DNA of 62,690 bases, filler included, from Stramenopiles sp. TOSAG23-6 (taxonomy: Eukaryota): NCBI GenBank assembly GCA_900128565.1. It is 8 parts of 8 records of this genome, joined end to end, with 100 filler letters (N's around TTAATTAATTAA, not from the genome) between each part and the next. Parts side by side here need not be neighbours in the genome. Positions count along the whole stretch, not along the records: positions 10,029 to 19,934 come from LT636344.1; 7 more parts are not named here. One strand, 5' to 3'. The notes below the pieces were generated by a model. The model saw nothing but the letters and a program-made list of their open reading frames with translations. It searched no databases and was not told where the DNA came from. Position numbers and translations under genes: made by a program. Positions 2,333 to 29,896 of the stretch are shown one piece after another. How positions within the stretch are numbered: the stretch's first letter is position 1; every line of letters starts with the position of its first letter.

Positions 2333-2422
2333 AGAAATTATACATATTTCAATTTTTACACTAAGTTTATATTTCAACAATTCAATGAAATTTGAAGTTT
2401 TATTTTTAAGAGTGTAGCTGTG

Positions 2423-3512: not shown

Positions 3513-3733
3513 TGGTGCTTAGATTCTTATATTTTAACCGTACGTAGTTTTTCCTACTTCTCAAGAAGTTCCAAAGAAAATCTCGAAAATCTCCGTATAT
3601 CTTAAGGGAATCTTATTGGGACAAACCTGTTTAGGAAAGAGTCAGCGCCGGGAGAGAGATTACCGGTTCCTGAGTCAGGAACCCATGATACCATTTCTAC
3701 ATTATTCTATTTGATTAATCTTTGTCAACAAAA

Positions 3734-6103: not shown

Positions 6104-6279
6104 TACGGGGTTAGTCATAGAGTTTAGGTAAAAGTATAATAATAAAAGAATAGTTGTGGTTATTATTTTATATTTAGAAGAAAAATATCCAAATTAAATA
6201 CAATTAGTACGAATATTGTTACATTTTAAAAGCATAGTATATCTGACAACAAAAGCAGGGACTAGATCTAGTAGAATCG

Positions 6280-8514
6280 CTACTTCATCTTTTTCCTCTT
6301 TTGTGCCTTCACTAATCGTAGAATTGCTGCATCTGCTTTTTTCACTGATTTTCTTCTGAAAAAAAGTTGTATTTTCTCTTTTTGTCGCTTAGAAATTAGT
6401 TTCAGCTTATACGATGAGCTTTTATCTATTCTTTTTTCAGGTGTTATTTTTTGAGAAACAACACTTGTACCATTGCATTTTCTATTGATTTTATAGTTAT
6501 GATTATTTTTATCCATGATACTGTTACGCAATCTCTTAGAAGAGCCGAGAGTAATTCCTATTTTCATTAATTCTTCCTCGGTGACTTCTTTCAATAAATC
6601 AACATTTATATCATTTTTTACTAATATTTGAAATACTTTATGTGGAATTAAATTGCTTCTTATGAATTTGTCTAATACTACGATTTCATCGATATTCATA
6701 CCCTTGCTGCCCCATTCCTGAAGTAGTTTTTGCCGGTTGGCTCTATCTTTTAACTTAGAAAGTGTTTTACGACAAAAGTAACATCGTACTAATAACTGTA
6801 TAGTAGTTGCAGCCTTATTTAGCTGCGCTTTATATTGTTGTTTCGCTCTTCTAGCTCTTCTAGCTAAAAATATACGAGAATTTCGCTGAACAATGATAGA
6901 GGCAGCGTCTTGCACTTTTGCTCTTCTAAGTAAAAATGTACGAGAATTTCGCTGAACAATGACAGATGCAGCCTCTTGTATTTTTCTTTCTTTGCGCAAT
7001 TTTTGAACTACTCCAACACTTTTCTTGGATCGAAATGTACATTGTAAAATTATAGCTGCCCTATCCAACCTTTCTTTATCCTTTAATAAACGATTTTGAA
7101 GTTTTTCTATCGCTTTTCCGCGGCGCTCTCGCTCGGAACGTAACGAAATTCGAATCAAGCGATCTGAAGGCTTTTTAAACTTTAATAAAGTTTGACTAAT
7201 CTCAGTTAAACGTCTTTGGTGTACTTTTATAACCGCTAAAGTTATACATCGACGCACAAGCCAACCACGACATATACTTTGTACTTTCAGTGCTACCTTT
7301 TGTTTCTTTTTTATATTTTGTCGGACATGTATGCTACGTTGTTGAGCTTGTAAACACTTTGCTGCATTTTCATTCCTTTTCATATTTTGACGGACCCGTC
7401 TGCCACGCTGCTGGGCTTGTAAACACTTTGCTGCATTTTGATTTCTTTTCATATTTTGACGGACCCGTCTACCACGTTGCTGAGCTTGTAAATACCTTGC
7501 TGTATTTTGATTTCTTTTCATATTTTGACGAACACATCTGCCACGTTGCTGAGCTTGTAAATACATTGCTGCATTTTGATTCCTTTTTATATTTCGACGA
7601 ACACATCTGCCACGTTGTTGAGCTTGTAAGCGTCTCGCAGCATAATTATTTTGAGCATGTTTTTTTCTATATGCTCTGACAACTTCGAGAGGTCTCAGGG
7701 GAACGTCACAAAATTTATCACTTAAATCTTCAAACTCGTGCATAGTGTTATCAAGATGAGCAGGAAATGTAAAGAAGCATGAATAACAAAAGAATAAATT
7801 GCAGGCTATACACTTTACTTGAATCCTGGAATCATTGCAGTTCTGACAGACCCAATACTGTTTACATTTTCGTCTGAAATAAGTTCGAAACTGATGTTGT
7901 ATTAATATAACACTACTGTGTTTTTTAAACATTTTCTTCTCAGTTAGCCATCTACGGGGTAACCGTTGAATCTTTTTTATTGCGTCACGGAGTATCTGAG
8001 TGTGTTTTCTCGCAAGATATCCTCGATATATTCTTTGAATATGAATTGAACCAAGGAGGCTTTTCAATCGATTAAACTCCTTTGCTAATTTTTGTGGATG
8101 GAATTTTTTATCAGTACCTACCTTTGATGGTTTTTGGTAAGAACTGTTCATTTGTAATTGGTATCTTCTAGAAGAAAACATTCTATTCCGTTCACGTCGT
8201 GTTTTCCTACCTCTGGTCGTTTCTTTCTCTGATTGATCTGCTTGACCATTTTTGGGACTCCTTCTTTTGAGACTACTTTTGAGATTGTTATTACTTATTG
8301 TCATACGACTTCTATAAGATTCATGTTTATTTCGTCGTAGCATATCTTTGCGCCGAGAAATTCCTATACTATTGCGATGCGGAATTGCTGCTTCTGCTTC
8401 TTCAATTTCACATTTAGCTTTCTTTTCAGCAGCAAGCCGTTCCATTTTTTCTATGCCGGACTTAAGCCTCCTATTATAAGCCACACTACGCACGTTTTTA
8501 GAACCATAGTGCAT
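6280..8514 (-). CDS. IQ-motif repeat protein with B-box-like zinc finger and C-terminal SAM-like domain
   Basis: Many IQ/LQxxxRGxxxR motifs, CQNC..CIAC..CYSC..H..H, and LVKNDINVDLLKEVTEEELMKIGITLG (SAM-like). Confidence 0.75.
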   Translation of the reverse strand: MHYGSKNVRSVAYNRRLKSGIEKMERLAAEKKAKCEIEEAEAAIPHRNSIGISRRKDMLRRNKHESYRSRMTISNNNLKSSLKRRSPKNGQADQSEKETTRGRKTRRERNRMFSSRRYQLQMNSSYQKPSKVGTDKKFHPQKLAKEFNRLKSLLGSIHIQRIYRGYLARKHTQILRDAIKKIQRLPRRWLTEKKMFKKHSSVILIQHQFRTYFRRKCKQYWVCQNCNDSRIQVKCIACNLFFCYSCFFTFPAHLDNTMHEFEDLSDKFCDVPLRPLEVVRAYRKKHAQNNYAARRLQAQQRGRCVRRNIKRNQNAAMYLQAQQRGRCVRQNMKRNQNTARYLQAQQRGRRVRQNMKRNQNAAKCLQAQQRGRRVRQNMKRNENAAKCLQAQQRSIHVRQNIKKKQKVALKVQSICRGWLVRRCITLAVIKVHQRRLTEISQTLLKFKKPSDRLIRISLRSERERRGKAIEKLQNRLLKDKERLDRAAIILQCTFRSKKSVGVVQKLRKERKIQEAASVIVQRNSRTFLLRRAKVQDAASIIVQRNSRIFLARRARRAKQQYKAQLNKAATTIQLLVRCYFCRKTLSKLKDRANRQKLLQEWGSKGMNIDEIVVLDKFIRSNLIPHKVFQILVKNDINVDLLKEVTEEELMKIGITLGSSKRLRNSIMDKNNHNYKINRKCNGTSVVSQKITPEKRIDKSSSYKLKLISKRQKEKIQLFFRRKSVKKADAAILRLVKAQKRKKMK
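7325..7630 (-). repeat. Coding tandem repeat of about 69 nt (23-aa IQ units)
   Basis: Repeated ccacgttgctgagcttgtaaa...ctgcattttga units encoding LQAQQRGRxVRQNMKRNQNAA. Confidence 0.85.
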
Positions 8515-8853
8515 TATATTCTTCGTACACTAAGACTAGTTACAAAACATTGTTCATTATCATAATAGAGACTGTAGCGGTTTTCTTCTTTCTCAAAGGT
8601 ACCACTAGATATTGTATATAGCTAGCAAGTAGTAAACAGCTACTAGTAGTTGTATACACGTAGAGAAAAACAGACCGTTTTTCAGCCGTTTTTTTTCTTT
8701 TTTTTTTTCGTAACGGCTACATGCAAAACGAGACCTTTTAATGTGAACAGCAAGCATACCGTATAGAAGAGTGACAACAAAGGGAGTTTGATAACTTCTT
8801 GGTCAGAAAAACGTATAATCAATAGCGATTCCAACGTAACATAAACGCAACTA

Positions 8854-9519
8854 ATGGCTTCTCCAGCAACAACTGTACCGCCGCCAGTAACTGTACCACC
8901 ACCAGCAACCAATGCCAAAGTAACTGCACCACCACCCGTAACGACAACAGCCGCTGATATACTTCAAACCACACCTCAAAATAGAGCAAGTACAGAGAAA
9001 ACTAGTCAAACATTAATTGAGAAAAAAAGTAACTCTACATTAATACCGAAAAGTAAAGCTAATTTTGATGAGGCAACAATGAAGTCATTTCGGGCGTGTT
9101 TTACGGCATTTGACAAGAGTGGAACTGGGAATGTGACGTCCGATGGGCTATTATCAGCTTTGCAGGCATTGCATCCAAACAAAACTGTTACCCATAGTGA
9201 AGTTTTAGGTATAATGAACACAATTGATAAGAACCATAACGGGACGATTGATTTTGACGAGTTCGTTGGTTTTATTGGTTCAAAAATGGTTAGCCTAGAT
9301 TCAGCTCAATATGTGGATTTGATTTTTGAGGACTTTGATTTAGACCAAGATGGGTTAATTGATGTTCATGATTTAATGACATTATATGTAAAAGAAATAG
9401 GCGTCAACGACATAAGCAAAGCAGAATGTGGATCATTTATGAAGCTATTTGCAAAGAATGGCGTATCAATGACAAAAGCTGAGTTTAATAAGTGGATGAA
9501 TAGTAATATTAGCGTATAA
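8854..9519 (+). CDS. Calmodulin-like EF-hand protein with Pro/Thr-rich N-terminal extension
   Basis: EF loops DKSGTGNVT, DKNHNGTIDFDEF and DLDQDGLIDVHDL. Confidence 0.85.
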   Translation: MASPATTVPPPVTVPPPATNAKVTAPPPVTTTAADILQTTPQNRASTEKTSQTLIEKKSNSTLIPKSKANFDEATMKSFRACFTAFDKSGTGNVTSDGLLSALQALHPNKTVTHSEVLGIMNTIDKNHNGTIDFDEFVGFIGSKMVSLDSAQYVDLIFEDFDLDQDGLIDVHDLMTLYVKEIGVNDISKAECGSFMKLFAKNGVSMTKAEFNKWMNSNISV

Positions 9520-9629
9520 TTTACTATCATTACAGAAGAATAAATAATAGTAGCGATGATGTATTTTAAAATAAAACCATGAATAAAAATAGATAGTTTC
9601 TTTTATTATAATGGCTAATCGGTATATAT

Positions 9630-9928
9630 CTATAAAAATCTATTTCGTACACGTGCTCGTCTAGTAGTTTGAAAAGAAGGTGTCTTTGGTTTTGTGAGAG
9701 TTCTACGTTTCCTTCGTCTATTCTTTGTTTTCCCTTTTTTATGGATTTCATGGTATTTCTGTGCTCGTCGTCGTATGACGTCCAAAGCTTGCCTTTCAAG
9801 AAAACTGCTAGCAGCTTTTGTAGTATTGACTCTCTTGGATTCTTTATGAGACCCTCCCTCCTCATTTTCAAGAAGAGTGTTGTCTCTCTCTTTGATTCTC
9901 TTAAGATCTTCTTCCATTTTTATTCGCC
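9630..9928 (-). CDS. C-terminal fragment of a basic hypothetical protein (contig-truncated)
   Basis: Open Lys/Arg-rich frame running from the gap; no recognisable domain; the coding frame is uncertain. Confidence 0.3.
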
Positions 9929-10028
9929 NNNNNNNNNNNNNNNNNNNNNNNNNNNNNNNNNNNNNNNNNNNNTTAATTAATTAANNNNNNNNNNNNNNNN
10001 NNNNNNNNNNNNNNNNNNNNNNNNNNNN
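9929..10028. other. Artificial contig linker (N-TTAATTAATTAA-N); also at 19935-20034, 29910-30009, 39884-39983, 49833-49932, 59753-59852 and 61222-61321
   Basis: Identical 100-nt N/TTAATTAATTAA/N spacers. Contig lengths never increase (9928, 9906, 9875, 9874, 9849, 9820, 1369, 1369), consistent with size-sorted unlinked contigs. Confidence 0.95.
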
Positions 10029-10081
10029 TTGTACCTAACAAATTTAAGTTTTTTTTTTTGAAATATTTTTCCAAAATACAT

Positions 10082-11048
10082 ATTTTGACTATTGAATATA
10101 AAGGTCAGACGTTCACTGGTTCTTTATCAACTTCTGGAGAAATTACTGATGATATTACAAAAGAAAAATTTCGAACCCCTTCAGGTTGGGCAATCACTGC
10201 AAAGCGGAGATTATGTACGTTTTAGATTTTTTTCGTACGAAATTTCGTACCTAACAAATTTAAGTTTTTTTTTTTGAAATTTTTTTTTTCAATGAATTTC
10301 TAATTTAATTTATTTTTCATACGAAATATTGTACCTAACGATTTTTTTTAGATTTTTTTTGAAATATTTTTTCATAATCCATGTCCAACAAAGAAAGCTG
10401 ATGCTGGATGGTCCAGTGTAAAATATAAAGGTAGACCACTTGGCTTATTAAAAAGAAAATTTTTCAAAACGTTTCCAAATTATATGAAATCTGTTGATAC
10501 ATCATCAAAAAATGAACAACGAAAGAAAAAACAGGCGAAAGCAGTCGTTGTATCGAAAGATTCCTCTGTTGCAAAATTCATCACTTCAATACAAACATTT
10601 CAAAAAAAATACGAAAATGACTTCAAAAATTCGAATTCTGTATCAAAAAAAACAAAATCAGTCTGAAAAAAAAGTTTCTACTGGTACAAATTCTACTCTG
10701 ATGCGTAATCTAAATAATGGAAGAAGACGCGGAAGAAAACGAAAACCAAATTTTTTATTCAAAAAACCTAATCTTTCCACTTCTCCATTGTATAAAACTC
10801 GATCTCATAAAAGACGCAAAATATCGAATGATACTTCAATACAAAATAATGACGAAACCCGAACGTCACCCGGTAACCCTCAAAACGAATCAGTTGAATC
10901 AGCACTATTAGCAATGGCACATGCAGTAGAAGGCATTATCTCCTTATCCGAACATTCAAGCAGTAGCGATTCTCAAGAAAGACAAGAAAAAGTTGAGGTT
11001 TTATCTAAAGGTAGTAAACCATTTGTACATCGACTTCTTAGACTATAA
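10082..11048 (+). CDS. RAMA-domain protein fragment (5' truncated); intron 10215-10382; possible frameshift near 10650
   Basis: Spliced frame ILTIEYKGQTFTGSLSTSGEI...FRTPSGWAITAKRRL|CPTKKADAGWSSVKYKGRPL resembles the RAMA domain of MPND-type proteins. Confidence 0.7.
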
Positions 11049-11266
11049 AAAAAAGTATCATGGTTTTTTCTAGTAAACCATTTGTACATTGACTTCTTAG
11101 ACTATAAAAAAGAGTATCATGGTTTTTTCGGTTTCTTTTAATTTTATATATATACGTATATATATATATATATAAAATATCACCTCGTCGTGTTTTCAAG
11201 GCAACGTTTTGCCTCATAAAAATTGTTTCCTCAAAAAGTCAAGACATTCGATTGTGCTTCAAAAAG

Positions 11267-14200
11267 TCAAGACATTCGATTGTGCTTCAAAAAGTCAAGA
11301 CATTCGATTGTACCACAAGCTTCAAGGCAGGTTTTTGCTTCATGAAAATTATTTTGTACATATAACAATCTTCCTAATTGTGCATAAATCGATTCTTGTA
11401 AACGTGCATGGAATCTATTACTTTGTTTTTGTTTGGATACTAATGCCGCTGCAATGCGTAAAGAATTTTCTGCTTCAGAAAACCGAGTTGTTTCATATCC
11501 ATTACTTTGTATTAATGCATATGCAAATTGATAATGCCATGTTGGTTCATTGGGGGAAATGACTGATGCTTTTTTAAAATAAGTCGCGGCTTTAGTGTAT
11601 TCTTTATGCTTTTGCATTAGAGTACCTAATTTTCCATACGTTGGTGCGACTAATGGATCTGTTTTTGGTCCTACATTTATAGCTTTCAAATATGCTTCTT
11701 CAGCAAGATCATCTCGTCCTTCCAATATTTTATTTTCGGCTTCGAACATTTGGCGTGCTGTCCATTTCGAATGTAAACATTCTTTATTGGTGATTCCCCA
11801 TTTAATGTCACAAAGCTGAAGTTTTTGCCAAACATTTATCATCAAAGAGGGTGAGTGGTTCACTACAAAATGAAACCAATGGTTTGGCATAAATAATAAA
11901 TCACCTTCCAAAACATTAATTTCGATTGCTTGTTGTTTCACGCGCTTTGTAAAAAATTTAAATGTTGTAGTATTCACAGACCGTGGGTCGTTTATCGAAG
12001 AAAACCAAACCTGATTTTTTTGTTGAACATATAAGGAATCCTTTGTAGCTGGTGGAAAGACAATCCACGTTTTGTTGCCAATATATTGATGTGCAAAGTT
12101 ACCATGATGAGCATGATCAGCATGCATTGTTGATATAGTTCCTTTGCTTCCAATCCACAGACGGGGCATCTGAAAACCAGTATTCGTAGAATTAAATACC
12201 ACATGTTTATATCCCATTCTCTCTAATATACGTGGGGATATTTTATTATTTCCTATATAGTCAGGTAATGATTCTGTATAGGGATCTAAATTGAAAGGCA
12301 ATGTTATCCTATCAATGTACTCGCCAAGTGTAACATTATGATAATCTCGAATATGATACCCATCCGGAGCTATTGTTATATTTCGACCTCTCATAATTTC
12401 TGAACCAAAGGTTTCTTTCAATAATTGCCAAGACCATGGCCATGTATTCTTTAAAAGTCCGCGTACGATGAATGGAGAAGATTCTTGTGAAGGATGACTA
12501 TTGTAGTGTGATACAACTGCTGCACTCATCCGAATCCTTGAAATTTCTGGTACCCTCCGTGCACATGTTGTGTCTTCGGTATCTTTGTTACTATTATTAC
12601 TATTTGAATGTAAAGTATCAATTATATGAGTGCTACAAAGAACATTCAAAATTACTGTTACAGCAGCGTCATAAACATAATCGGGATATACATATTCTAC
12701 TGTAGAATCGTAATCATTATCAATGGTACTTTTAGCACCATCAAAAATAGGAATCACTTCCGATGCTAGGGATAAATCATATAAATCTGCTACTATCATT
12801 CCATTATCCATTGCGAACGCCACTGCTTTTCTCTCTACTGCAGCGACGCGCTGGGCTTCCAAAAGAGCTGACTTCTCTGAGGCAGTATTAGCAAAAATAC
12901 CTTTCACGCGATTATATGTACCAGTATATGACGAAGGAGCAAAATCCGTCCAGAGAGTAATACCAACAACTTCTTTTCTTTGGTTTCTCATTTTCGTATT
13001 AAATATAATATCATTCAATGCTGGAATTACGGCATCTACAAAATATGCAGAACTTGATACTAATGTGCCAGTTCCGCTCGATGCATCAATAATTCGCTGT
13101 GCCTTCAGAACTTGTTTAGTTGCATCCGACGGTGAAATTGGTATGTTCCAAAAGTGGATATTTACTCCATCCACTGACACAGTGTCTAGATTATTTAAAT
13201 TTTTCACCACTATACCTAAATGTTTCAATAATGATAAGAATACTAACCGTTGAGATAAACTCCCAGAAAGAAATATAGAATGCACACTACAACTAGTAGC
13301 GTTGGTGTTGCTTTTATTTCGTGAATTTATGATACATTCCCGTGCAGAAGAACTGCTCAAGAAACGTCTATGCCAGCATCCATTTCTGAAAAATTCTTCA
13401 CCGCACCATTTACCACCGATACCAAACCCCCCACTTGGTAGTTGTGGGCAGTGATTATTTGTTGTGCAAGGCAAATTATACAAATTAGATAACTGCTTAC
13501 CGTGTTCAAATCTTATTTCATTGGAACATTCTACCAAGGAGTTTTTATTTTGTCTGTGATTAAGATGATTGCAAGGCCCTCGCTTTAGCTTTGCGTGATT
13601 GGTATCATGAGTATCCCTTGCAACATCGTTTGTTTGAGCACTGCATAGATTTGTTGGGTATAACAAATCCTGAACTATTTCATTCAATGGTTTGTTCAAT
13701 GATATTACATTAAGCAAATGCTGCATAACAATACGACGACCATGATCCAATAAATGTACACCCCCTATAGATTGCGGGCCCCATTCATTACCTTGTTCAA
13801 AACAAGAAGAAAAACGAGTGCGTAAGAGAGATAGAGTCGGTGTAAAATTATCAACAGTGATTAAGCCAGCGTTTCTTGCCGCTACTATTGATGCTACGCT
13901 AAATTTTGATAGTTCAGATTGTACACTCTGATTCTGCCAACGAGAGTGTGAAGGATCGACCATACTAGGGGAACGCCAGATCCACATGTTACTATTAGAG
14001 AAAGTTTCCTTGGAAGAAATAAACTTGAATATACCATGAAGTTTCTCTAATGTTTCAGGAGTATTCAAAAGTCCTTTCATCAATGGATAAGCACCAAAAG
14101 ATAAAACTATAATGCGGTTATTATCAGCAAATCGTTTTTGTTTGTTTTTACCACCCTGAGTTACGATAGAAAAAACTTGTGATTCAAATTCTTCAAGAGA

Positions 14201-14674
14201 CATAGCACGAAAGTAACGTACCTTTTCAATATCGCAACGTCCAGGCTCGTATTCTTCCAATTTCTCTGTATTCCCTAATGTACGCATATTTTCTGCAGGC
14301 AACCAGCGTTTAGATTCCTTAAAGTCTGGTAGTCGTTGATTAACGGTACAGTCTGCTTCCGCACATGGCGTTCGAGAAGAAGCGGAAGGCCAACCATCTA
14401 ACAAAGCCTGAATAGTAAAAGATAATCTACGGCTAGTAGAGTCTCCCACAATATACACCGAACGATTTTTGAGTAGTTTACACGCAGACTTGGTGTTGAA
14501 CCACTTGAAATTACAAGAACTCTCTGCATCAGATGGCCACTCCCATTCACCAAATTCATTCCATTTTCCATCAGTAACAGAGCTGGTACAGTTGAAATAT
14601 CGTTTCGTAGATAACCCTACATGAATTAATACAACCAAATACAAAAGTCGCAGATAATTGGAACGAACCATCAT
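11267..14674 (-). CDS. Secretory multidomain protein: SGNH/PC-esterase-like domains, JmjC (cupin-8) and TPR
   Basis: Signal-like N-terminus; YIVGDSTSR (GDS motif) and a degenerate second copy; LWIGSKGTISTMHAD...GDLLFMPNHWFH (JmjC HxD...H); C-terminal TPRs. Intronless. Confidence 0.8.
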   Translation of the reverse strand: MMVRSNYLRLLYLVVLIHVGLSTKRYFNCTSSVTDGKWNEFGEWEWPSDAESSCNFKWFNTKSACKLLKNRSVYIVGDSTSRRLSFTIQALLDGWPSASSRTPCAEADCTVNQRLPDFKESKRWLPAENMRTLGNTEKLEEYEPGRCDIEKVRYFRAMSLEEFESQVFSIVTQGGKNKQKRFADNNRIIVLSFGAYPLMKGLLNTPETLEKLHGIFKFISSKETFSNSNMWIWRSPSMVDPSHSRWQNQSVQSELSKFSVASIVAARNAGLITVDNFTPTLSLLRTRFSSCFEQGNEWGPQSIGGVHLLDHGRRIVMQHLLNVISLNKPLNEIVQDLLYPTNLCSAQTNDVARDTHDTNHAKLKRGPCNHLNHRQNKNSLVECSNEIRFEHGKQLSNLYNLPCTTNNHCPQLPSGGFGIGGKWCGEEFFRNGCWHRRFLSSSSARECIINSRNKSNTNATSCSVHSIFLSGSLSQRLVFLSLLKHLGIVVKNLNNLDTVSVDGVNIHFWNIPISPSDATKQVLKAQRIIDASSGTGTLVSSSAYFVDAVIPALNDIIFNTKMRNQRKEVVGITLWTDFAPSSYTGTYNRVKGIFANTASEKSALLEAQRVAAVERKAVAFAMDNGMIVADLYDLSLASEVIPIFDGAKSTIDNDYDSTVEYVYPDYVYDAAVTVILNVLCSTHIIDTLHSNSNNSNKDTEDTTCARRVPEISRIRMSAAVVSHYNSHPSQESSPFIVRGLLKNTWPWSWQLLKETFGSEIMRGRNITIAPDGYHIRDYHNVTLGEYIDRITLPFNLDPYTESLPDYIGNNKISPRILERMGYKHVVFNSTNTGFQMPRLWIGSKGTISTMHADHAHHGNFAHQYIGNKTWIVFPPATKDSLYVQQKNQVWFSSINDPRSVNTTTFKFFTKRVKQQAIEINVLEGDLLFMPNHWFHFVVNHSPSLMINVWQKLQLCDIKWGITNKECLHSKWTARQMFEAENKILEGRDDLAEEAYLKAINVGPKTDPLVAPTYGKLGTLMQKHKEYTKAATYFKKASVISPNEPTWHYQFAYALIQSNGYETTRFSEAENSLRIAAALVSKQKQSNRFHARLQESIYAQLGRLLYVQNNFHEAKTCLEACGTIECLDFLKHNRMS

Positions 14675-14991
14675 CTCAAACCCCAACTTTTATAATTACG
14701 TACCGGATTCCCTTGCCGCTGTTGCACGTATCTAGTGCTCGTCTAATCCAGTCAAGATAATTTAGCCTTGATCCTCTTATTATTGAAATATTGAAATATA
14801 TAGATAAGCATCAGAGTAAGCCTACTTTATAAATTAACGCGATGGAATCTTTTTTATTAGGATACCGTAATACAACAACGGTATAAAGATACGACCGTTC
14901 TTTTCCGCATTCGCATTCGGCATTTCTGTTGTGACTTTCGGACTTTTGTGACCCGCAAGTACCTACACTACTCTACTGGACGTAGTAAAAT

Positions 14992-16205
14992 ATGTCATTA
15001 ACATACTCCCGCAAACTCGTTGATGTTCTTCGGCCTCATTTCAAGCCCGCAAAGGTTGCACGTCTCGAAGAAGTATTGTCGAATCGTCGAAATTCACGTC
15101 GAATAATTCTAGAAAATGTAGGAGATATACACAATGCAGTAGCGTGTTTGCGATCGGCTGATTCCTTCGGGATACAACACGTGCACTTAATTGAAAGTTA
15201 CGATAATTTTCCAATTTCAAAACAGCGAAATATTAAGGGTTTACCAGCGAGTACTGATACAGGTGCTCAAAAATGGTTGACAATTCATCACCATAAAAAT
15301 GTTGAAGACTGTGTTGATCATTTAAAGGCTGAAGGCTTTCAAGTTCTTGTAAGTTCCGTGGATGACGAAGAAGACCCAGATTTTGCGGATATGCAAGCCA
15401 AGCCAACACTTCCATTAGTTACCGCTCTACAGACAGCTTCATGCAATGCAATTAACACATGTGATCTATCTAATAATACAGGGGAAGACGACGGACCTTC
15501 TGACATTGTGGAAGGAAAAGCAAGTTGTCACGGTTTAGGTGCTGGAAATGCGCGAATAGCTTTGGCGTTTGGCAATGAAACACGTGGTGTATCTAGAACC
15601 TTGTGTATGCATGCTGATATAAGATTTTGGATACCAACTTCTGGATTCACTCGATCGCTCAATTTATCTGTTGCCACAGGTGCGAGTCTTGCTGTGATGG
15701 ATTCACTAGATAGAATGTACGTTTTATTTTTTTTTCAAATTCGAATTTTTTTTTCGTACGAAAATTTGTACCTAACGATTTTTTTTGAAATATTTTTCCA
15801 AAATACATGGACTTTGAGATACTTGCTAGAAAGAGTTCTACTTGTACGTCTAAAAAGAGTTCTACAAGTAAATCTCCGACAATGGAAGACATAGCTAACA
15901 ATCTTTGTAGTACTAAAATGAAATCCGGAGGTCCAGACTGGGGGGGATATTGGGCTTTAGCAGAGAGTCGTGGAATAGACGTCTTGTCTGAAACTTCTGT
16001 TGCACAATTGGGTGAGGAAAAGTCACAATTGAAAAAGGAAAAGGATAATAATACAAAAATATCCAAAGTAGAAAGAAAATTTAATGGCTTATTGTCCAAA
16101 GAAGAGCAGGTTGGATTAATGTCAATCTGGATGCTTCGTGACTTTGGACGTGGTGTTGACGCATTCTTGAAAAGACATGGTTTGCGTCGTCCAGATGACT
16201 TTTAA
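14992..16205 (+). CDS. SpoU/TrmH-family RNA 2'-O-methyltransferase; intron 15717-15808
   Basis: ILENVGDIHNAVACLRSADSFG, AFGNETRGVS, IPTSGFTRSLNLSVA (SPOUT motifs). Confidence 0.9.
15717..15808 (+). mobile_element. Representative introner-like intron (GT...AT), close to the family consensus
   Basis: gtacgtttt-T-run-ttcgtacgaaaatttgtacctaac-T-run-gaaatatttttccaaaatacat. About 50 related copies lie in unrelated genes, in the host's sense orientation. Mobility is inferred from the dispersed similarity. Confidence 0.75.
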
Positions 16206-16395
16206 CAAAATTAATGATCAAAAAATTTGAGAATTTAAAAAAAAAAAGTGGCCCGGGTATACAAAATTTTAGTACAAAATTTAGCAAAAATATCGCTATA
16301 GGAACGAACATAGGAACGCCGAAAACAAAGATCAAAAAGAAGAGGATTTAGATTACGGGTACCACCTACTATAATTAATAATTCCGTCAAAATTA

Positions 16396-16947
16396 ATGAA
16401 AAATACAATGTCAACAACTTTACCCATCGATGTTAATGATTCATCAAGTTCTACTTATTACACTTTAAATCCATCGACCTTTTCAGTTCCATCCCTGTGG
16501 TCATATCGTCAAATTCAAAAACTCTGTAAGCAACTTGGTTTAAATGCCAGTGGGACACGTGAAAAGTTGGTGTCTAGATTACAAGAGTGGCACATTGAAG
16601 GCCGACATGGTGACAAAGCAGAGTGTGGGAAGTTTGGTTTGATTGGTATAAAGTTACATAGTCCAAAAAGAAAACATTGTAGTGTATCTCCATCGTTATT
16701 AAGTCCACTGCGTAAGACATCTAGAAAAAAACGTGAAGATGGTTCTGTCGTTTCACCAAGGTCAATTCTGAAACGAAAGTTTCAAACTAAAAATGGCGCT
16801 TCAGTAAAAGATAATTTCACAACAAATTTGGACACTGAAACTCCATCAAATAAAACAAGAAAACTACTATTCTCACCGTATAATATGGTACGTGTCATAA
16901 GCCCAGTATTTAGAAACTCTCCAGGGGAGATCGATGAGAGGCTGTAG
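16396..16947 (+). CDS. SAP-domain protein
   Basis: SYRQIQKLCKQLGLNASGTREKLVSRL matches the SAP motif. Confidence 0.75.
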   Translation: MKNTMSTTLPIDVNDSSSSTYYTLNPSTFSVPSLWSYRQIQKLCKQLGLNASGTREKLVSRLQEWHIEGRHGDKAECGKFGLIGIKLHSPKRKHCSVSPSLLSPLRKTSRKKREDGSVVSPRSILKRKFQTKNGASVKDNFTTNLDTETPSNKTRKLLFSPYNMVRVISPVFRNSPGEIDERL

Positions 16948-17053
16948 CAAACACTAAAAAAATTTCAGGACTTAAAAATATAAATTTTGTACTATATATA
17001 TATATATTATATTCATCATGCCAAATATCTAAGAATATTGACTTGAATCTTAA

Positions 17054-18139
17054 TTATAAAATAATGTCTCCTTCACCTTCATCACTATACCCATCAACTG
17101 AAGCTGTATCTTCGAAATCCTCGTCATCTTCGTCCGGAATTACTTCGACACAAAGTCTTCCATCACCACCAACTACACCTTTACAAACTCGACCACCAAT
17201 TGTTTCCGTGATTGAAATTGTCGAGGGAACTTTTTGCCTCTGAGTTGAATTTCGATGAAGTAAATTCAGACCCTCTTTACTGAGATTTTTTATTCTATCA
17301 CTATTCATACACTGGCGATTTTGTCGGCGCCGCCCTTTTAACAATTGTTGTGATGTTTTATGAATGTAAGATGAAACACGGGCACCCACTTTATTATGTC
17401 TATTGATGGGCTTTAACACGCCTAAGTCTTCTTCAATGTCATCTTGATTTGTAGTGGTTGTGCAGCTGAGAACAGTAGCATGAACACTGCCACCATCGCT
17501 TTCGTCCATATTCTCATCGGTAAAATCGCCCAGATTCACATTATTGTTTTTACTACTTCTTTTGAAAGGTGATGGTGTATTCACACCATTACTTACAAAA
17601 GAAAATAAGGAAGGTAAAGGTGACGTGAGACCCTCAAATGCATCATCTTGGTGCCCCGCTTCAACCTCTTCAAGCTTTTGGCGCAATTGCTCTGATCGTT
17701 TATGAGTTCCCTTGCCTGCTAGTCGAGTATACGATATTTTCTTCACTAGATTAGATTGTTGAGATGAGTTCGGTTTTGGTTTTCGTATTTTTTTCCCAAT
17801 CTCATTTAAAGGATTTGACTTTGAAGAAGAAAGTTGTTTTGTTAGTGTGGATGTATCCTTTGAATCTAGACATTCTGATTTCTTTCTTTCACAACGGCTT
17901 TGAAAACGTTTTGAACAATCATTTCTTGTTTTCGAAGACTTACTCCGTTTTGGCTTCGGAGATCTAAAACCACTAAACCATCGCTCTTGACAATCTTTGC
18001 CTGTTTTATTTCCAGGAACGAATTTCGCAATTTTTGACCAGTACTTTGAAGATCGTGGATCAACAAGTCCTCGAGTAACCGCTTTCCTCAAAGCTGCCAA
18101 TTGACTACCTCTCCAACCATCATCATCTTCTTCATCATC

Positions 18140-18172
<33 letters not shown>

Positions 18173-19934
18173 TACTTCATCAACTTCAACATCAACTTCA
18201 TCATCATCTTTGTCGTCGTCATTATAGTCAGAATCGGCATCACTATCATCAGAATTATCACTTGTCACTACCATTTTTTTATCATCACTAGTATGTGAAG
18301 TATTTGAATTTGATCTTGATCTTGATCTAGTTGATCGGCGTAGTGGTAATACTTTTTTTGTTTTTGAATTTTTCAAAGAAGCAGTCCGCTGATTTCGTGT
18401 TGAGGTGCATTTAATTTCTGTTGTGCTTTTTTGAGCTGATACCTTTTTACTACCCGAGCTTTGATTGACAGGAGCATTTGCTCTTCCTGAATATCCAATG
18501 ATAGGATCAACTAGTACATTAATAGGCAACAAAATAGCAGTGCCTTTTAGAAGCTTTGCTTTCGCTGTAAACCCTTTGTATCTATCTTTGTTTAAAGCTA
18601 TAAGTGTACCAAGTTTTGCACCTAATAATGCACAAATAGAATTTGGAGTTTCATTCTCTTTTTGAGTATAATAAATTCGTACTAATTCATTTCCACTGTC
18701 ATCTTCTTCATCACTTTCAGACTCACTTTTCTTTTTTTTTTTAACTTTATTCGTTTTAACAATTTTTTTGACAGGGTTCTTTGCTTTTTGAACGTGTTTC
18801 GTGTCGTTTTTAGAAATATTTCGTTTACAATGTTTCTTTGCTTTTTGAATGTTTTTCGTGTCTTTTTTAGGACGCCCGCGTTTTTTATTTTTTCTTTGAT
18901 TCATTGATTTGCTAGTTGATGTTTTTGAGTTTTTATCATTTTTATGTTTTTTGGTTTTTCTTTTATTCTTTTCTGTTGAGACAGGTTGTAGTGCCTGTTC
19001 CTTTTTGATTGCATCCATTTTAGAAGCCATTTCATTAAGACTTTTTTCAGCAATATCTCGTTTTCTCCTTGCTTCTGCTTCTCTTTTTTCTTCATCCAAG
19101 CCATATTTAAACCTGTCCGATGATGCTTTTTGGAAAAATATTTGAAAAAAAAATCGTCAGGTACAAAATTTCGTATGAAAAAAAAATCGAATTTGAAAAA
19201 AAATAAAACATACATGATAAGGCGGTCCTTTCTGCATTTCCTATAGCGAGTGAACAACATCCTACTAAACTACCATATTTTCTCGATTGAACAGGTACTG
19301 TGAAAAATATTTTACATTCATTTTTTTTGTTAGGTACAAATTTTGGTACAAAAAGAAAATTTGATTTTGAAAACGTACAACTCTCTGATTTCTCCAAAAT
19401 GCTAGAGGTGGTAAAGATCGTCGACCACTTTTAGTCCGTGCTGTGCCCACTTCCAACACACCGGCTAGAGAATCTAATGGAACTTCTGGTGTTTTTGACT
19501 CAACTGTCGGAGTTGGCATTGGTTTTCGAGGCACTGGTAAAAGATCGGTTGTTGTATTCGTAAACATCTCAGGGGTAACGGTATGTAACAAAGATGAATG
19601 ATTTTTAGACTTTGGTGTATTTGTTTCATCAATGCGATTTCTCGAGTGTTGTGCTGTTTTTATCTTCGATGCTGAATTTGATTGAGTTTTTGTTTTTTTC
19701 TTTGATAGAGATTTTGTTTCTGGTTTTGATGTTTGTTTTCGTTTTGATGCTGAATTTGATTGAGTTTTTATTTTTTTCTTTGGTACAGATTTTGTTTCTG
19801 GTTTTGATGTTTGTTTTCGTTTTGGTGCTGAATTTGATTGAGTTTTTATTTTTTTCTTTGCTACAGATTTTGCTTCTGGTTTTGGTGTTTGTTTTCGTTT
19901 TGATGCTGAATTTGATTGAGTTTTTATTTTTTTC
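17054..19934 (-). CDS. KNL2/M18BP1-like centromere licensing protein (5' truncated); introns 19293-19378 and 19123-19213
   Basis: CENP-C-like motif RTKSGRRSLPPLAFWRNQR, SANT/Myb domain (W...YWSKIAKFVPGNKTGKDCQERW), and C-terminal GTHKRSEQLRQKLEEVEAGHQDDAF resembling the M18BP1 tail. Also a LysM-like segment. Confidence 0.7.
19668..19934 (-). repeat. Coding tandem repeat, 78-nt unit (26 aa), at least 3.5 copies, broken by the contig end
   Basis: The unit start g(a/g)tgctgaatttgattgagttttt recurs at 19668, 19746, 19824 and 19902. Confidence 0.9.
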
Positions 19935-20104
19935 NNNNNNNNNNNNNNNNNNNNNNNNNNNNNNNNNNNNNNNNNNNNTTAATTAATTAANNNNNNNNNN
20001 NNNNNNNNNNNNNNNNNNNNNNNNNNNNNNNNNNAAAAAAATAAAAAAAAAAAAAAAAATTTAAATTTTTTTTTTTTTTTTTTTTAAATGAAATGTAAAC
20101 GTAC

Positions 20105-22063
20105 ATGCCAAAGGTCTATCGGTTGTATCTCCAAGGCCAAGTCTGCCGTTACTTCCATCACCCCATGCATACATTTCACTATTTGTAAGTAGAACTAAAG
20201 TGTGCCCAAGCCCACATGCTACATCTTTTACCGGTGCTTTCAAATGTAGGGCATTTACAATACGAGGTAATATGTATTGTGAAAAAAAAAAAAAAAAAAA
20301 ATTGTTTTTTTGTTAGGTACAAAATTTCCTACGAAAAAAAAAATAAAATAATAAAAACATACATTTCTTCAGTTGTATCTCCATGGCCTAATCGGTACTT
20401 ATCTCCATTACCCCATGTAAACAGGTCACCAGCGGCATTTACCGCGACGGAATGTGTAGAAAACGATGCAACTTGTATCATCGTTGTATTTGCAATTGAA
20501 TCAACAATAGATGGAACAAATCGATTAGAAAGATGATTTTCTCTAGGGTTAGGGTTAGGGTTAGGGTTTCCTATTTTTGAATTTCTAGGGTTATGGTGTA
20601 GGGTATATATACCATTTTCACTTCCAGATATTTCATTATTTCTCGTACCAATTGGATTTCGTGGGTGATAAGGGTTAGGGCTATCATTCATTCTACTATT
20701 CATAGTACGATTTCCATATATCTCAGTTTGGGAAGAATTCGACATTTTTATAGAAAGATTAGGGTTAGGGTTTTTTACTTTGTTTCCTATATTGTTTGTC
20801 AAATTCGTATTATTTATTTTTTCATAACCATGACCTAATTTCCCATAGTCACCTCTTCCAAATGTAAAAAGAACACCTTGTAGCATAGGGTTAGGGTTAG
20901 CACTATTATTAAAATGACAAACATTTCCATCCTCTCTGTGATCAACAAAAAGATTTCCTTGAGATTCTTCTTCAATTTTTGTTTTTTTTGNTTTTTTTGN
21001 TTTTTTTTNTTTTTTTTNTTTTTTTTGTTGTACTAGACATTTTCATACCTAGTGTATCATGACTATTTTGACTATTATGAAATGCCTTTGCAGACGATAT
21101 CTCTTCAAGATACTGTTTAATACTAAAAATATTCATTTTATCAAGCTTATATTTGTTAGGGTTAGGGTTACTAGGGTTAGGGTCACATCTATTCATGACA
21201 GTTAAAATTGTTTGGACGGCTGATAATATATGACGAAGATGTCCTCGTTTGATTGAAATACCGATAATACTAGAGAGAGCTTCGACATTTGCAATATTAT
21301 GTTTATTATGTTGTTTTTTTTGTGTAATGGTTGTTGTAGAGTTAGGGTTAGGGTTAGACTCTACACTGTCTGTGAGATAGTTTTCCAGTGTTTCAACTAG
21401 GGACTGCACTACTCCTCTTTTATCATTATTATCATTATTATCATTATTATCATTATTATCATCAAATGAGGACAAGTATAAACTGTTTCTAGAAAGGGAT
21501 AAAGCTGGAAATCCGGATAAAATAACCGGTAACTGTTTAACAATCTGAGTCAACAACCTATCGCTATTCGAATGCCTAATTGTTTGAAGTAATCTGAAAA
21601 AAAGTTTTACGCCAATTTTCGCATGTAAAGGTAATTGAGAAAATGAAGTATCTGTTCCTCCCTCTATCAATGAGATATCAGAAAAACATTTCGTGTTTGT
21701 AGAGTCATTTGATTGTTTGTCTTCCATAGAGAAAGGAGTCAAGGTGTTATCCATAACCAACTTAATGGAAGAGTTTTTACCATTACTAAGAGAAAACTTT
21801 AGTTTTTGTCGCGCACATATCAATTGAAAGTCTACACACCTTGCAAGATATATTCTATGATTGATTTCACGCGAATGTTTGTCTCCACTTTGGACGAGAA
21901 TCTTTGCTTCACTGTCTAACCACATTGTATCACGAAATGCAGCGTAATCTAGAGCTGGAAAGCCAAGTAGTACGTCTGCTTCAAGAGCATCTGTGGCTTG
22001 TGTATCAACAACGTCTCCTGGGATTGTATCAGGTTGTGATTCAGTATGTATTTGCTGCACCAT
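20105..22063 (-). CDS. RCC1-repeat protein, HERC-like N-terminal part (3' truncated); intron 20272-20362; low-quality stretch near 20990
   Basis: [20 protein letters not shown]...[27 protein letters not shown]...[13 protein letters not shown]. Confidence 0.8.
20544..21358. repeat. Cluster of short interstitial (TTAGGG)n tracts inside coding sequence (encoding NPNP)
   Basis: Tracts near 20544, 20671, 20760, 20887, 21156 and 21341. Confidence 0.85.
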
Positions 22064-22635
22064 TCTTCCCCAGCTACATTAACTATTCGTGTAAAGAACT
22101 CATATCTATCTATGCAAGGGAATTCTCTTTTTCGTGATATTATTAAAATTCAATAATTTCAATCATTTCAATCGATCAAATCAACGAGCATTTGAAGAGC
22201 ACAGCGCGGCATAATCGTGTTTTTTATGCCAAAAGTGGAAAATCGTAAAAATGCTCTAATTTCTAAAGTAGGCAGAGTTTTTTGTACAGATTGAAATGGT
22301 ATGCTCCAAATACTAAACTCCGAACATCTACAAAGTTACATGAAGAAACTCTACGCCTAACATTGTTTAATTAGACATTGNCATTTTTTNAAGNANGNAC
22401 CCTTTTCCATAAAAAAAAAAAATTAACTACGAAATTTCGTACCAAAATTCCAAAAAAAAATTAACTACGAAAATTCCTACTTAAATTGTGAAATTCTGAA
22501 TTTGGCATAAAAAAAAAATTTCAAATTTCAAATTTCAAAATTTCAAATTTTTTCGATCCAGTACTCCCTCTAATAATAATACATCTACATACTTATATAT
22601 ATTCAAAATATTGTATAGTAATAAAACTAGACAGA

Positions 22636-23502
22636 ATGAGAGAAATGACATATATTGTTGTATGGTTTGTTCTAGTCCTTTCAATGTGCAAGCTAGAAAT
22701 TTCCATCGGAGCGGATATCAAAATCTTGGCTGCTCGAGTTGAGCCTTCGGAAGGGATATTAGGTGTCAATGGAGTAGTTAATGCAGTAGTCACTGCTTCC
22801 GAAGAAGGTTTATCTGTCGAAGCAGGTGGATGTTCAATAAATGATGTGGATGTTTCTCAAACATTAGTCGATATGGGATCAGGAGAATACAAATTAACGT
22901 ACATAATTAAAGAAGGCGATCATGACCGTTCAACGGGAACTCTACCCTTCTCCTGTGAATTTGTTAAGAAAAAAAAGGGCGAAGCATCTATTATTAGAAT
23001 TTTCAAGTTTACAGAGACATTCACTCTTTCCGTAGATGCACATGCACCCGAACTAATTGGAGCTTCTGTAATTCGTGTCACTGGAGTCGATGGAAAACCA
23101 CAACCTGCACATAAACCTTTAGGTGTCGGTGGCATGTATGTTTTCTTTTTTTTTTTCGAAAATTAAATTTTTCTTTTCGTACGAAATTTTGTACCTAACA
23201 GTTTTTTTTTTTTTTTTTTGAAATATTTTTCCAAAATACATTGTTTCTATAGAAGTTGAAGCGAGTTCCCTTGATTCAAATCTAACTTTAGGTGATTGTT
23301 TCATAAATTTCCCAAAAGGTAAAGTAAAGCAAGGTAAACGAGTGTCTGATGTGCTTATCCTTGGCCGTGGATTATATGTTGTAAACTATTTAGTCGAGGA
23401 AGGAGATGTACGTTTTTTGTAGTAATGATTAGAATTTTTTTTTTTTTTTTGGTTTTTTTTTCATACGAAATTTTGTACCTAACGATATTTTTTTTTTTTT
23501 AC

Positions 23503-23534
<32 letters not shown>

Positions 23535-23567
23535 TTTAAAAAAAAAAAAATTTTTTTTTAAAAATTT

Positions 23568-23608
<41 letters not shown>

Positions 23609-26368: not shown

Positions 26369-26628
26369 CCCTAAAAGCTAAAAATGCTAAAAAAACTAAA
26401 AAGCTAAAAAAACTAAAAAAAAAAAATCTAAAAATAAACAAAAAATATATTTTTTTCATACAAAATGTTGTACGTAATGTTTACCTTTTTTAAAAATGTT
26501 TTTATTGTAATGACTTGAAAATATTCTACAGCCCTTGCGAATAATTAGTAATTAATATAGTGATACACATACAAACATGTCAGTCTTGGATTGGATATGC
26601 AATAAATATTTTTACATATTTTTTTAAA

Positions 26629-27372
26629 CTAATCGTAAAATCGTAAAACTAACCCCAATACTAATCCGCTCAATGCTAAAATTGCCATTGAGTATAAGAA
26701 AGAACTATATCTGCCAATTTCTGTATCAACTTCTTCCGTATTAGTTTCTTCTACAGTAGCAACAGCACGAAATTTACCGGGTTTGGATTTTTCAACTAAC
26801 TGCTGTCCATCAACATCCACATGAAAAGCACCGGATTGACCAAGAAAACGGAGTTTTGTTAGTTGATAAATTTGCGTTGGAATCGAACCAGATAGTTGGT
26901 TGTTATCCAAGTTCAAATATTCAAGATTTGTTAGCTGCCCAATTTCTTTTGGTACTAAACCAGTTAGTTTGTTGTTGTTCAACCACAAAAATTCGAGGTT
27001 TCTTAGTCGACCAAATTGTTTTAGTATTGGACCAGATAGCTTGTTATAACTGAAGTTCAAATATTCAAGATTTGTTAGATGACCAATTTCCGTTGGTATT
27101 GAACCAGATAGGTTTTGGTTACGCAGGTCTAACGCAATTACAGTGGTTTGATCACGATTGCACTCTACGCCTAACCAACCGCAAACAGACCCACTAAACC
27201 TCCAAGGTCCATTTGGCCAAGGGGTGGTACTTTGCCTTGGCCTCCACTTCCAAATATCTCCATTAGTTGCGAAATACAAACTGTTTAAAGCATCCCTTTC
27301 GTGTTTAGCTACTACACCCTCAGTGCAATAAATGTTAGATACCATCAATAGTACAAGTAATTTCATCATCAT
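26629..27372 (-). CDS. Leucine-rich-repeat membrane protein (signal peptide, plant-type LRRs, C-terminal TM)
   Basis: ALNSLYFATNG..W, CGWLGVEC cap, repeated LxxNxLSGxIPxEIGxLTNL. Confidence 0.9.
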   Translation of the reverse strand: MMMKLLVLLMVSNIYCTEGVVAKHERDALNSLYFATNGDIWKWRPRQSTTPWPNGPWRFSGSVCGWLGVECNRDQTTVIALDLRNQNLSGSIPTEIGHLTNLEYLNFSYNKLSGPILKQFGRLRNLEFLWLNNNKLTGLVPKEIGQLTNLEYLNLDNNQLSGSIPTQIYQLTKLRFLGQSGAFHVDVDGQQLVEKSKPGKFRAVATVEETNTEEVDTEIGRYSSFLYSMAILALSGLVLGLVLRFYD

Positions 27373-27599
27373 CTTTTATGTATACCATGTAAAAATTGTT
27401 GCGCTCTCTTCAATGACGATTAAAAAAACAATTAAAAAAAAAATAGCAAATCGAAAAAAGGCGACAATTATAAAATATAATTTTTCATTTGAATTTTATT
27501 ATGTTACCCGGTACAGTGTTATACGTCTCTACGTTGAACTAATTACATCTACATTAATGTTTATACTATTGAGTAAAAAAGTAAATCTGTACTGTCCGA

Positions 27600-29758: not shown

Positions 29759-29809
29759 GTATGTTTTGTTTTGTACAATTTTTTTTTTTTTTTCAACAAC
29801 TTTTTAGAA

Positions 29810-29843
<34 letters not shown>

Positions 29844-29852
29844 AATTTTTTC

Positions 29853-29896
<44 letters not shown>

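Follow-up and report, generated by a model that had tools for sequence, protein, structure and literature searches.

How can an intron with a textbook donor end in AT, when an AG at the end of introns is near-universal and among the most constant signals of eukaryotic genes? The question is raised by an intron of 92 nt at 15717-15808 (plus strand, phase 2), which interrupts a SpoU-type methyltransferase gene of Stramenopiles sp. TOSAG23-6. It begins with GT and ends with AT. The gene lies in a stretch of 62,690 bases (hereafter the window), which consists of eight contigs placed end to end. This intron is one of about 55 short introns in the window that are built on a common plan. We consider it probable that these spliceosomal introns have all descended from one short, repeated, introner-like element, which would carry its own splice signals and be cut as GT..AT.

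Removal of the focal intron joins open frames of 242 and 131 codons. Its donor is directly preceded by an exonic AT (15715-15716, plus strand, as are all the blocks of this intron) and forms part of the 5' block GTACGTTTT at 15717-15725. This block is followed by a AAATTCGAATTT block at 15737-15748, which is found only in one of the two subfamilies described below (subfamily A) and has no role as a splice signal, and by a palindromic TTTCGTACGAAA block at 15752-15763. The branch-site-like block GTACCTAAC occupies 15768-15776; the likely branch A, at 15775, precedes the end of the intron by 33 nt. The 3' block GAAATATTTTTCCAAAATAC, of the subfamily A type, extends over 15787-15806, and the terminal AT at 15807-15808 would be the acceptor dinucleotide. 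When the focal exon was compared with a protein collection, the best match was 32% identical.

The common plan consists of GTAYGTTTT, a T run, (TTTCRTAC)GAAATTTTGTACCTAAC, a second T run, and either TTTTTCCAAAATAC-AT or TTTTCACAATAC-AT. A preliminary description of this locus had pointed to shared blocks, separated by variable poly-T, in the introns of unrelated genes. The excess of the motifs in the window and the profile matches given below bear this out. Allowing at most one mismatch, GTACCTAAC showed 62 matches, where 7.0 were expected and the maximum in shuffled sequence was 14. The motif TTTCRTACGAAA showed 78 matches against 1.7 expected; since it is palindromic, most of its sites were counted on both strands. 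The 17-mer GAAATTTTGTACCTAAC, which spans the branch block, showed 17 exact matches against an expectation of 0. As the same description had suggested, a profile (hidden Markov model) of the element was built, from a whole-length alignment of 16 clear seed copies, and was run on the window (E<=0.01). It gave 65 matches, which merge to 52 places on both strands with all eight contigs represented; the focal intron scored 67.3 bits. The copies account for 10.5% of the non-N bases.

For 46 full-length copies, both ends were placed by the profile or by the sole phase that joins long open frames. Two copies (2716-2782 and 60039-60149, both GT..AT) were found later and stand outside the counts on these 46. 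The intron length ranges from 63 to 215 nt, with a median of about 110. The first two bases are GT in 44 copies, AT in one and GA in one. The last two bases are AT in 37 copies, as had been claimed for most of them, AG in 5, and AA, AC, TT and CT in 1 each. An exonic AT at positions -2 and -1 precedes the donor in 33 of the 46 copies, in good agreement with the earlier count of about 33 in 48 and far above the frequency of AT in exons (9.6%; binomial p=8e-24). The wider flank shows T at -1 in 42 copies, A at -2 in 35, C at -3 in 19, A at -4 in 20, G at +1 in 26 and T at +2 in 19. Phases 0, 1 and 2 are represented by 14, 14 and 18 copies, a few of them ambiguous. This distribution is compatible with random AT sites (p=0.47), in a test of low power.

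The position of the cut sites was analyzed on the basis of reading frames and homology. Removal of the repeated unit joins long open frames in one phase in every copy (46/46). In the KBL gene (28584-29909), the four exons were searched separately against solved structures and aligned to chain 3tqx_A, covering residues up to 139, 141-203, 205-227 and 228 onwards; residues 140 and 204 correspond to the codons split by introns. This collinearity spans one GT..AG and two GT..AT introns, all on the plus strand. Excision as AT|GT...AT| fits introns 2 and 3 (29407-29503 and 29575-29677) exactly. Intron 1 (29099-29215) ends in AG and must be cut at AT|GT, and its donor context equals that of the AT-ending copies. 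In the alternative oxidase gene, the junction is frame-consistent, not residue-exact, 4 extra residues being implied within an unaligned stretch.

For the 33 AT-flanked copies, cuts of the types GT..AT, TG..CA and AT..AC yield identical mRNA. It is thus conceivable that the boundaries are shifted by two bases and that the AT-flanked copies are AT..AC introns (/ATGTAYG...AATAC/). Such introns would give the same mRNA in these 33 copies, and they would obey the established rule of AT-AC introns that the first A pairs with the last C. In addition, one copy (62527-62628, minus strand, ATACG..AT, with an ambiguous upstream frame) starts with A instead of G. Against this, the AG-ending member of the KBL gene, with the same donor context, must be cut at AT|GT, and the first cleavage of splicing occurs before the 3' site is selected. 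With shifted boundaries, the 13 copies lacking an exonic AT would begin with GT, TT, AG, AC, CT, GC or CC, and GTAYGT fits the usual major-type consensus only if G is the first base. Nine of these 13 copies still begin with GT and end with AT. Because of the KBL member, of the order of the two choices and of these nine copies, we prefer the GT..AT cut and regard AT..AC boundaries as improbable. Judged by frame, by homology and by uniformity across the copies, these are predicted to be introns that end in AT. Their removal would be the work of the major spliceosome, and the exact cleavage positions in the AT-flanked copies are probably those of GT..AT.

Two other modes of removal were considered and rejected. 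For a U12-type reading, the accessible part of bioRxiv 10.1101/2020.10.12.336362 gives the donor [AG]TATCCTT and the branch TTCCTTRAC near the 3' end; with GTAYGTTTT as the donor, GTACCTAAC as the branch block and 41 nt as the median distance between that block and the 3' end, both motifs and spacing fail. Excision at the DNA level, as of the internal eliminated sequences of ciliates, was considered on account of the short direct repeat; it was set aside because the copies have donor and branch motifs and some of them are GT..AG.

The branch block TACCTAAC was found, with at most one mismatch, in 43 of the 46 copies. Its last A lies 28-52 nt before the 3' end in 39 of these 43 (median 41), with T runs in between, which speaks for the major type of spliceosome. 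Since several AT dinucleotides stand between the branch block and the 3' end in each copy, the 3' end would be set by the context ...AATACAT and not by the first AT. An internal AG at least 10 nt past the branch A is present in 13 of the 43 copies, mostly at 10-14 nt; because these sites are too near the branch, skipping of internal AGs cannot be claimed. An RNA structure that joins the intron ends was also considered, and is unsupported: six copies fold no better than shuffles (z-scores +0.48 to -1.76). Judged by eye, there was no covariation in a small GUAC...GUAC hairpin, nor between position 4 of the donor and the R of TTTCRTAC. Fungal introner-like elements end in AG and have predicted stable folds. 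The introns of the window differ from them on both counts, 37 of 46 ending in AT and the folds being no better than those of shuffles.

Are these introns alike by descent, or have splicing signals made them alike? Whole-length pairwise identity reaches 0.90, between the focal intron and the one at 19123-19213, which lies in another gene on the opposite strand (its end is AT, or AG 3 nt upstream, both in frame). For 41 of the 46 copies, the nearest neighbour is above the best shuffled pair (0.72). The base at position 4 of the donor and the kind of 3' block are associated (13/6 vs 1/23, Fisher p=8.5e-6): GTAT pairs with ...TCCAAAATAC, and GTAC pairs with ...TCACAATAC. The columns common to both subfamilies are ATGTA-GTTTT, the T run, AAATTTTGTACCTAACAA and TTTTT-CA-AAT--AT; subfamily A alone has the AAATTCGAA block and GAAATATTTTTCC. 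Five introns of five genes contain the same two-unit composite, in which a second 5' region (TACGTTTTCATCAT...) without its first G is followed by a second branch block. At 35153-35342 (minus strand), two complete units abut head to tail with one AT in common (...ATACAT|GTTTG...). Copies outside introns are limited to two fragments. One is an antisense branch block at 52691-52734, framed by a 59-nt direct duplication of the 3' end of a gene (52632-52690 and 52735-52792; 52632-52792 in all) that holds the last codons and the stop. Since it sits between two plus-strand genes, this fragment is outside any intron. The other (26449-26497, plus strand, E=0.004) is a weak, degenerate branch-block fragment in a 3' untranslated region or intergenic DNA.

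The similarity extends over the whole length of the introns and is bounded by their borders, the exons of the host genes show none of it among the self-matches given next, and subfamilies and composite copies are present, as is characteristic of introners. A self-comparison of the window gave, among the 40 matches listed (at least 120 nt), the intronless ankyrin paralogues and tandem repeats, and none that linked intron-bearing regions. Gene duplication therefore does not explain the similarity of the introns. It had also been stated that many contigs break inside a copy, and the ends are indeed enriched there: by a strict mask 5 of 16 internal contig or gap ends fall inside copies, where about 1.7 are expected (p=0.02); 6 of 16 do so if the end at 61221, 5 bases from a match, is counted (p=0.004), and 8 of 16 if two ends read as intronic are added (p=9e-5). 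Such breaks may also be due to the long T/A runs of the copies.

On the opposite hypothesis, the introns are old, were never mobile, and have been made alike by splicing signals of exceptional length and strictness, such as those of yeasts. Both subfamilies do indeed conserve the donor, the 20-nt branch block and the 3' end, all introns seen fit the plan, all full copies are in sense orientation within genes, and locus-specific duplication was not found. Budding yeast introns have the form GTATGT...TACTAAC; the introns of the window resemble them in the length and near-invariance of these motifs, GTAYGT and CTAAC differing little from their yeast counterparts. They are unlike strict-signal introns, which share signals only, in their whole-length similarity, linked subfamilies and composites. 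The strict-signal hypothesis is further opposed by the linkage of independent variants at both ends (p=8.5e-6), the blocks without a signal role that occur in one subfamily only, the recurrence in five genes of one composite form whose inner donor is dead, the abutting complete units, the antisense fragment outside an intron, the identity of up to 90% over the full length, the even phases (14/14/18) and the enrichment of contig breaks. We therefore consider it improbable. Of the alternative raised in the preliminary description, that the shared blocks are extended splicing signals, one half stands: the donor, the branch block and the 3' end, conserved across both subfamilies, do behave as such signals. 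The linked subfamily blocks and the composites are left unexplained by it. The claim made there of one repeated introner-like family agrees with the identity, the linkage of the ends and the composite copies.

The window thus demonstrates a repeat family with subfamilies, restoration of the frame by GT..AT removal, and collinearity at three KBL junctions. Common descent of the copies as an introner-like family appears well supported, as far as sequence comparison can tell, and the family would have spread by insertion rather than by homogenisation.

The exonic AT had been interpreted as one half of a 2-nt target-site duplication, the second copy of which serves as the acceptor. We compared positional matches within a locus with those between loci, a criterion taken from the accessible part of Gozashti et al. 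2022. In the 46 copies, the observed matches equalled the expected ones at all 12 positions (-6 to +6). The sole departure was at position -2 (p=0.02, uncorrected for 12 tests). The AT...AT match is therefore a family-wide consensus only, a pattern which that paper, in the part accessible, classes as ambiguous. An exonic AT is absent in 13 of the 46 copies, 9 of which still end in AT, and copies of this kind are not decayed: those at 48989-49106 and 60223-60329 (both minus strand, GT..AT) are among the best profile matches, with 66.0 and 65.3 bits. Copies that lack the exonic AT thus keep their AT ends and can score highly, as if the terminal AT belonged to the element. The element therefore seems to carry its own AT acceptor, and the exonic AT behaves as a strong site preference. 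An AT target duplication that supplies the acceptor is thus partly contradicted and has not been established.

The ends had also been described as imperfect inverted repeats. This is correct insofar as GTA...TAC is present in all copies; the repeats are short, and a longer version, ATGTAT(G)TTT / AAA-ATACAT, is found in one subfamily only. With the flanking AT counted, the inverted ends amount to about 9-10 nt with one gap in subfamily A, and to ATGTA/TACAT only in subfamily B. The consensus of the flanks, ACAT|GT, is a palindrome that is restored wherever G follows an inserted copy. A palindromic flank fits symmetric integration of DNA, which is not proof of it.

A mechanism may be proposed as follows. 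Each copy would bring the donor GTAYGTTTT, a T run followed by the extended branch block AAATTTTGTACCTAAC, which would lie some 41 nt before the 3' end, and a second T run with its own 3' end, ...CA(A/C)AATAC-AT. The transcript would be cut before the GT and after the terminal AT, the acceptor being AT in about 80% of the copies and AG in about 11%. New copies would enter genes in sense orientation, with a preference for sites between an exonic (C)AT and G. Once inserted, a copy would rebuild such a site with its own 3' end, which would explain the abutting and composite copies. We lean slightly towards insertion as DNA, of a non-autonomous transposon with AT as a duplicated target of 2 nt, over insertion as RNA by reverse splicing.

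Several points weigh against the descent of all these introns from such a mobile element with a GT..AT cut. Splicing and the cut sites are predicted from the DNA sequence, the three possible cuts are equivalent at the mRNA level in the AT-flanked copies, and four copies have other or ambiguous 3' ends. The census covers eight contigs of one organism. Full copies are all in genes and in sense orientation, and selection, spread at the RNA level and pure splice-signal constraint predict likewise; that all introns met in the window fit the family plan, diverged ones included, is equally predicted by strict lineage-wide constraints. Apart from the negative result of the duplication test, the inverted ends of subfamily B are only 3 nt long, and a transposase was not found in the 18 reading frames scanned in the window.

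Some of these points are shared by a hypothesis in which the family spreads via RNA, excised introns being reverse-spliced at junction-like AT|G sites and then copied into the genome. Reverse splicing and copying back have been proposed for ascomycete introner-like elements, according to the accessible part of Gozashti et al. 2022. What is repeated coincides with the intron exactly (GT..AT), also in the 13 copies without an exonic AT. Locus-specific duplication was not found, full copies are only sense and genic, and the inverted repeats at the ends are weak. Families that have neither duplications nor inverted repeats, with an interpretation by reverse splicing, are likewise described in what is accessible of Gozashti et al. 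2022. Insertion of RNA is opposed by the antisense fragment with duplicated flanks in non-intronic DNA and by the palindromic flank ACAT|GT (C at -3 mirrored by G at +1, and A at -4 by T at +2, with the counts given above), such as symmetric integration of DNA gives. In addition, the RNAs are not unusually structured (z +0.5 to -1.8), and most known families are argued to be DNA-based (Gozashti et al. 2022, accessible part). Spread via RNA is rather unlikely in our judgement.

The preferred reading, an introner-like element, can be compared with known systems. As far as the accessible parts of the cited papers go, introners that contribute one splice site and gain the second from a duplication occur in Micromonas, Aureococcus and many aquatic protists, and introner families without duplications or inverted repeats are also known (Gozashti et al. 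2022). Like the introners of Micromonas pusilla and Aureococcus (Gozashti et al. 2022, 2025), many introns in unrelated genes are here one short element, the copies are genic and in sense orientation, the host is aquatic, and the element supplies at least one splice site. Unlike them, the element of the window seems to be the source of every signal, a non-AG acceptor among them, has no demonstrable locus-specific duplication, is much shorter (about 110 nt) than most described families, and appears to make up all introns seen in 62 kb. With ascomycete introner-like elements, judged by the same accessible text, it shares a repeated unit that is the intron, the lack of a demonstrable duplication and of long inverted repeats, and a strongly genic distribution.

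Transposon-like introns with non-AG ends have been described in Fritillaria (AG-AC, AG-AT) and Amoebophrya (PMC11282704, accessible part). In Fritillaria borealis, according to the same portion of that source, most introns are non-canonical, with inverted-repeat-like ends, a short direct repeat and AT acceptors, and a spliceosome tolerant of new ends is implied, as in the window. Its donors are non-canonical (AG) and diverse, whereas here the donor is a textbook GTAYGT, the branch block is strong and only the last base deviates. The U12-type introns of Physarum polycephalum have inverted-repeat ends with a 2-nt TA direct repeat and a possible transposon origin, and 17% of the non-canonical ones among them are GT-AT (bioRxiv 10.1101/2020.10.12.336362, accessible part). 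The inverted ends with a 2-nt direct repeat are thus shared, and GT-AT is real but rare in that organism. Its donor is RTATCTT and its branch lies 10-12 nt from the end, in contrast to GTAYGT and about 41 nt in the window, where GT-AT is the rule.

Literature searches brought up no genome reported to have GT..AT as its common intron type, and no such introns reported for marine single-cell genomes; supplementary intron statistics may exist. Unusual splice sites are not mentioned in the accessible parts of PMC5269757, PMC5778133 and PMC9903769. In public metagenome contigs, an exact pattern of 20 bases had 0 matches, and a gapped pattern of the whole intron had 5 single matches, none of them supported by the profile, which we read as chance. 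Six single 17-mer matches were found in viral contigs; the profile was marginal on five of these (E 0.002-0.004, 12.5-13.9 bits), and they were also read as chance. Exon 2 of KBL had a best match of 84% in the protein collection, no higher than many bacteria, and there was no transcript-derived protein of this organism among the matches in that collection. The public contig and protein collections that were scanned contain neither the element nor close relatives.

What would the AT ends mean for the spliceosome? More tentatively, and with slightly less than even confidence, we propose that the major spliceosome of this organism uses AU as its usual 3' dinucleotide, the whole intron complement having come from one element with a GU donor, an extended branch site and an AU acceptor, and GU-AG introns being a minority. 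If this is true, an invading element has reset a core rule of splicing in this lineage. A free-living marine eukaryote with AT at the end of some four fifths of its introns, while donor and branch site remain those of the textbook, would reveal the extent to which the major spliceosome can change, and would offer a natural system for the choice of the 3' site, for instance the pairing of the first G with the last U, or changes in U2AF or U2. The extended branch block raises the question of whether the branch-binding stretch of U2 is complementary to GUACCUAAC. Gene finders that require AG will mis-annotate such genomes, and the gene sets of the lineage may be systematically wrong. A family that seemingly makes up all introns seen, with composite and abutting copies, is also a compact test case for DNA versus RNA insertion of introners.

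The other copies are distributed as follows. Introns of the form GT..AT were found on the plus strand at 23136-23241, 23408-23622 (with long A/T runs), 23779-23903, 24302-24410, 25207-25330, 25515-25636, 38882-38978, 43127-43225, 50216-50326, 51003-51112, 52351-52524 and 58829-58926, and on the minus strand at 20272-20362, 45020-45114, 49639-49746 and 61954-62073. GT..AT introns that lack the exonic AT are at 33224-33324, 51884-51987 and 59079-59188 on the plus strand and at 34594-34688, 55912-56021 and 56151-56275 on the minus strand; the one at 60039-60149 (minus), outside the 46, is of this kind as well. The copy at 2716-2782 (minus), also outside the 46, belongs to subfamily A, is 67 nt long without a branch block and lies in the alternative oxidase gene. 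A copy of 63 nt at 35776-35838 (minus, GT..AT) is without the middle left block. Besides KBL intron 1, GT..AG introns are located at 25982-26082 (plus), 40739-40852 (minus), and 51311-51459 and 52115-52259 (both plus, with two branch blocks each).

Two branch blocks are also present in the GT..AT intron at 10215-10382 (plus), and repeated ones in that at 50441-50641 (plus, GT..AT), the 3' end of which is less sure. Composite introns ending in AT are at 1936-2144 (plus, two units), 34762-34950 (minus) and 59332-59502 (plus), all beginning with GT; the composite at 32880-33060 (plus) has the boundaries CAG|GT..AC. By frame, the intron at 19293-19378 (minus) is GT..CT, and that at 25773-25879 (plus) has an AA end, its 3' end being ambiguous. 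A diverged copy, GTAAGT..AT, at 51663-51784 (plus) was not detected by the profile. The degenerate copy at 56392-56497 (minus) is GA..TT by alignment and may not be spliced.

Truncated copies were observed at the ends of contigs. The 3' half of a copy stands at a contig start at 10029-10081 (plus), the 3' two-thirds of another at a contig start at 30010-30088 (plus), and the 3' end of a third at a contig end at 49803-49832 (minus). The 5' parts of copies reach contig ends at 20035-20104 and 59853-59895 (both minus). A composite copy at 39737-39883 (plus) and a copy with two branch blocks at 61110-61221 (minus) are cut at contig ends, and the 3' half of a copy at 49325-49379 (minus) adjoins an assembly gap of 165 N in contig 5 (49380-49544). 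Single N are scattered in the window. The densest cluster of the window is at 49933-52700, where a single gene in a stretch of 24% G+C holds at least 10 family introns in 2.6 kb, several of them with doubled branch blocks.

The branch block (A)CCTAAC is one base off the telomere-like repeat AACCCTAACCCT, and CCTAA-like repeats directly follow the branch block of an intron in the region of 62003-62038. The AACCCTAACCCT dimer occurs 13 times in the window against 0 expected, at 20545-21355 (minus strand), 35566, 38080, 44190, 50155 and 50857-50883. Several copies of AACCCTAACCCT lie within reading frames and encode Asn-Pro repeats.

The eight contigs extend over 1-9928, 10029-19934, 20035-29909, 30010-39883, 39984-49832, 49933-59752, 59853-61221 and 61322-62690, and are separated by linkers of the form N44-TTAATTAATTAA-N44 (9929-10028 and six further sites). 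The window is AT-rich, with a G+C content of about 24-39%. Its genes are eukaryotic (Eukaryota was the only taxon given by a protein atlas) and encode, in addition to the SpoU methyltransferase, KBL and the alternative oxidase, a TAZ/KIX protein, SAM, WW, ankyrin and JmjC proteins, a Sec1/Vps33-like protein, a PHO4 phosphate transporter, GDT1 and ribosomal protein L19e. The DNA of contig 3 was matched in seawater metagenomes and in two small DNA runs of one organism. RNA runs had small shares with contig 3, which may be poly-A/T words only. A search of the window against Rfam gave no RNA family and no small nuclear RNA.

An M20-peptidase-like gene shifts frame without an intron at 1380-1440 (near 1400) and at about 1715-1730 (at an A run). 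These frame changes are either assembly errors, namely homopolymer indels, or real frameshifts, and the lengths of the T/A runs within introns may be equally unreliable. Two adjoining ankyrin-repeat genes, at 52856-53934 and 54076-55593, are 84-88% identical to each other, contain internal periodic repeats of 87 nt and are both intronless. Tandem duplications were found at 7291-7629 (270 nt, 88% identity), within an IQ-motif gene, and at 19648-19934 (212 nt, 93% identity), where the duplication reaches the end of the contig.

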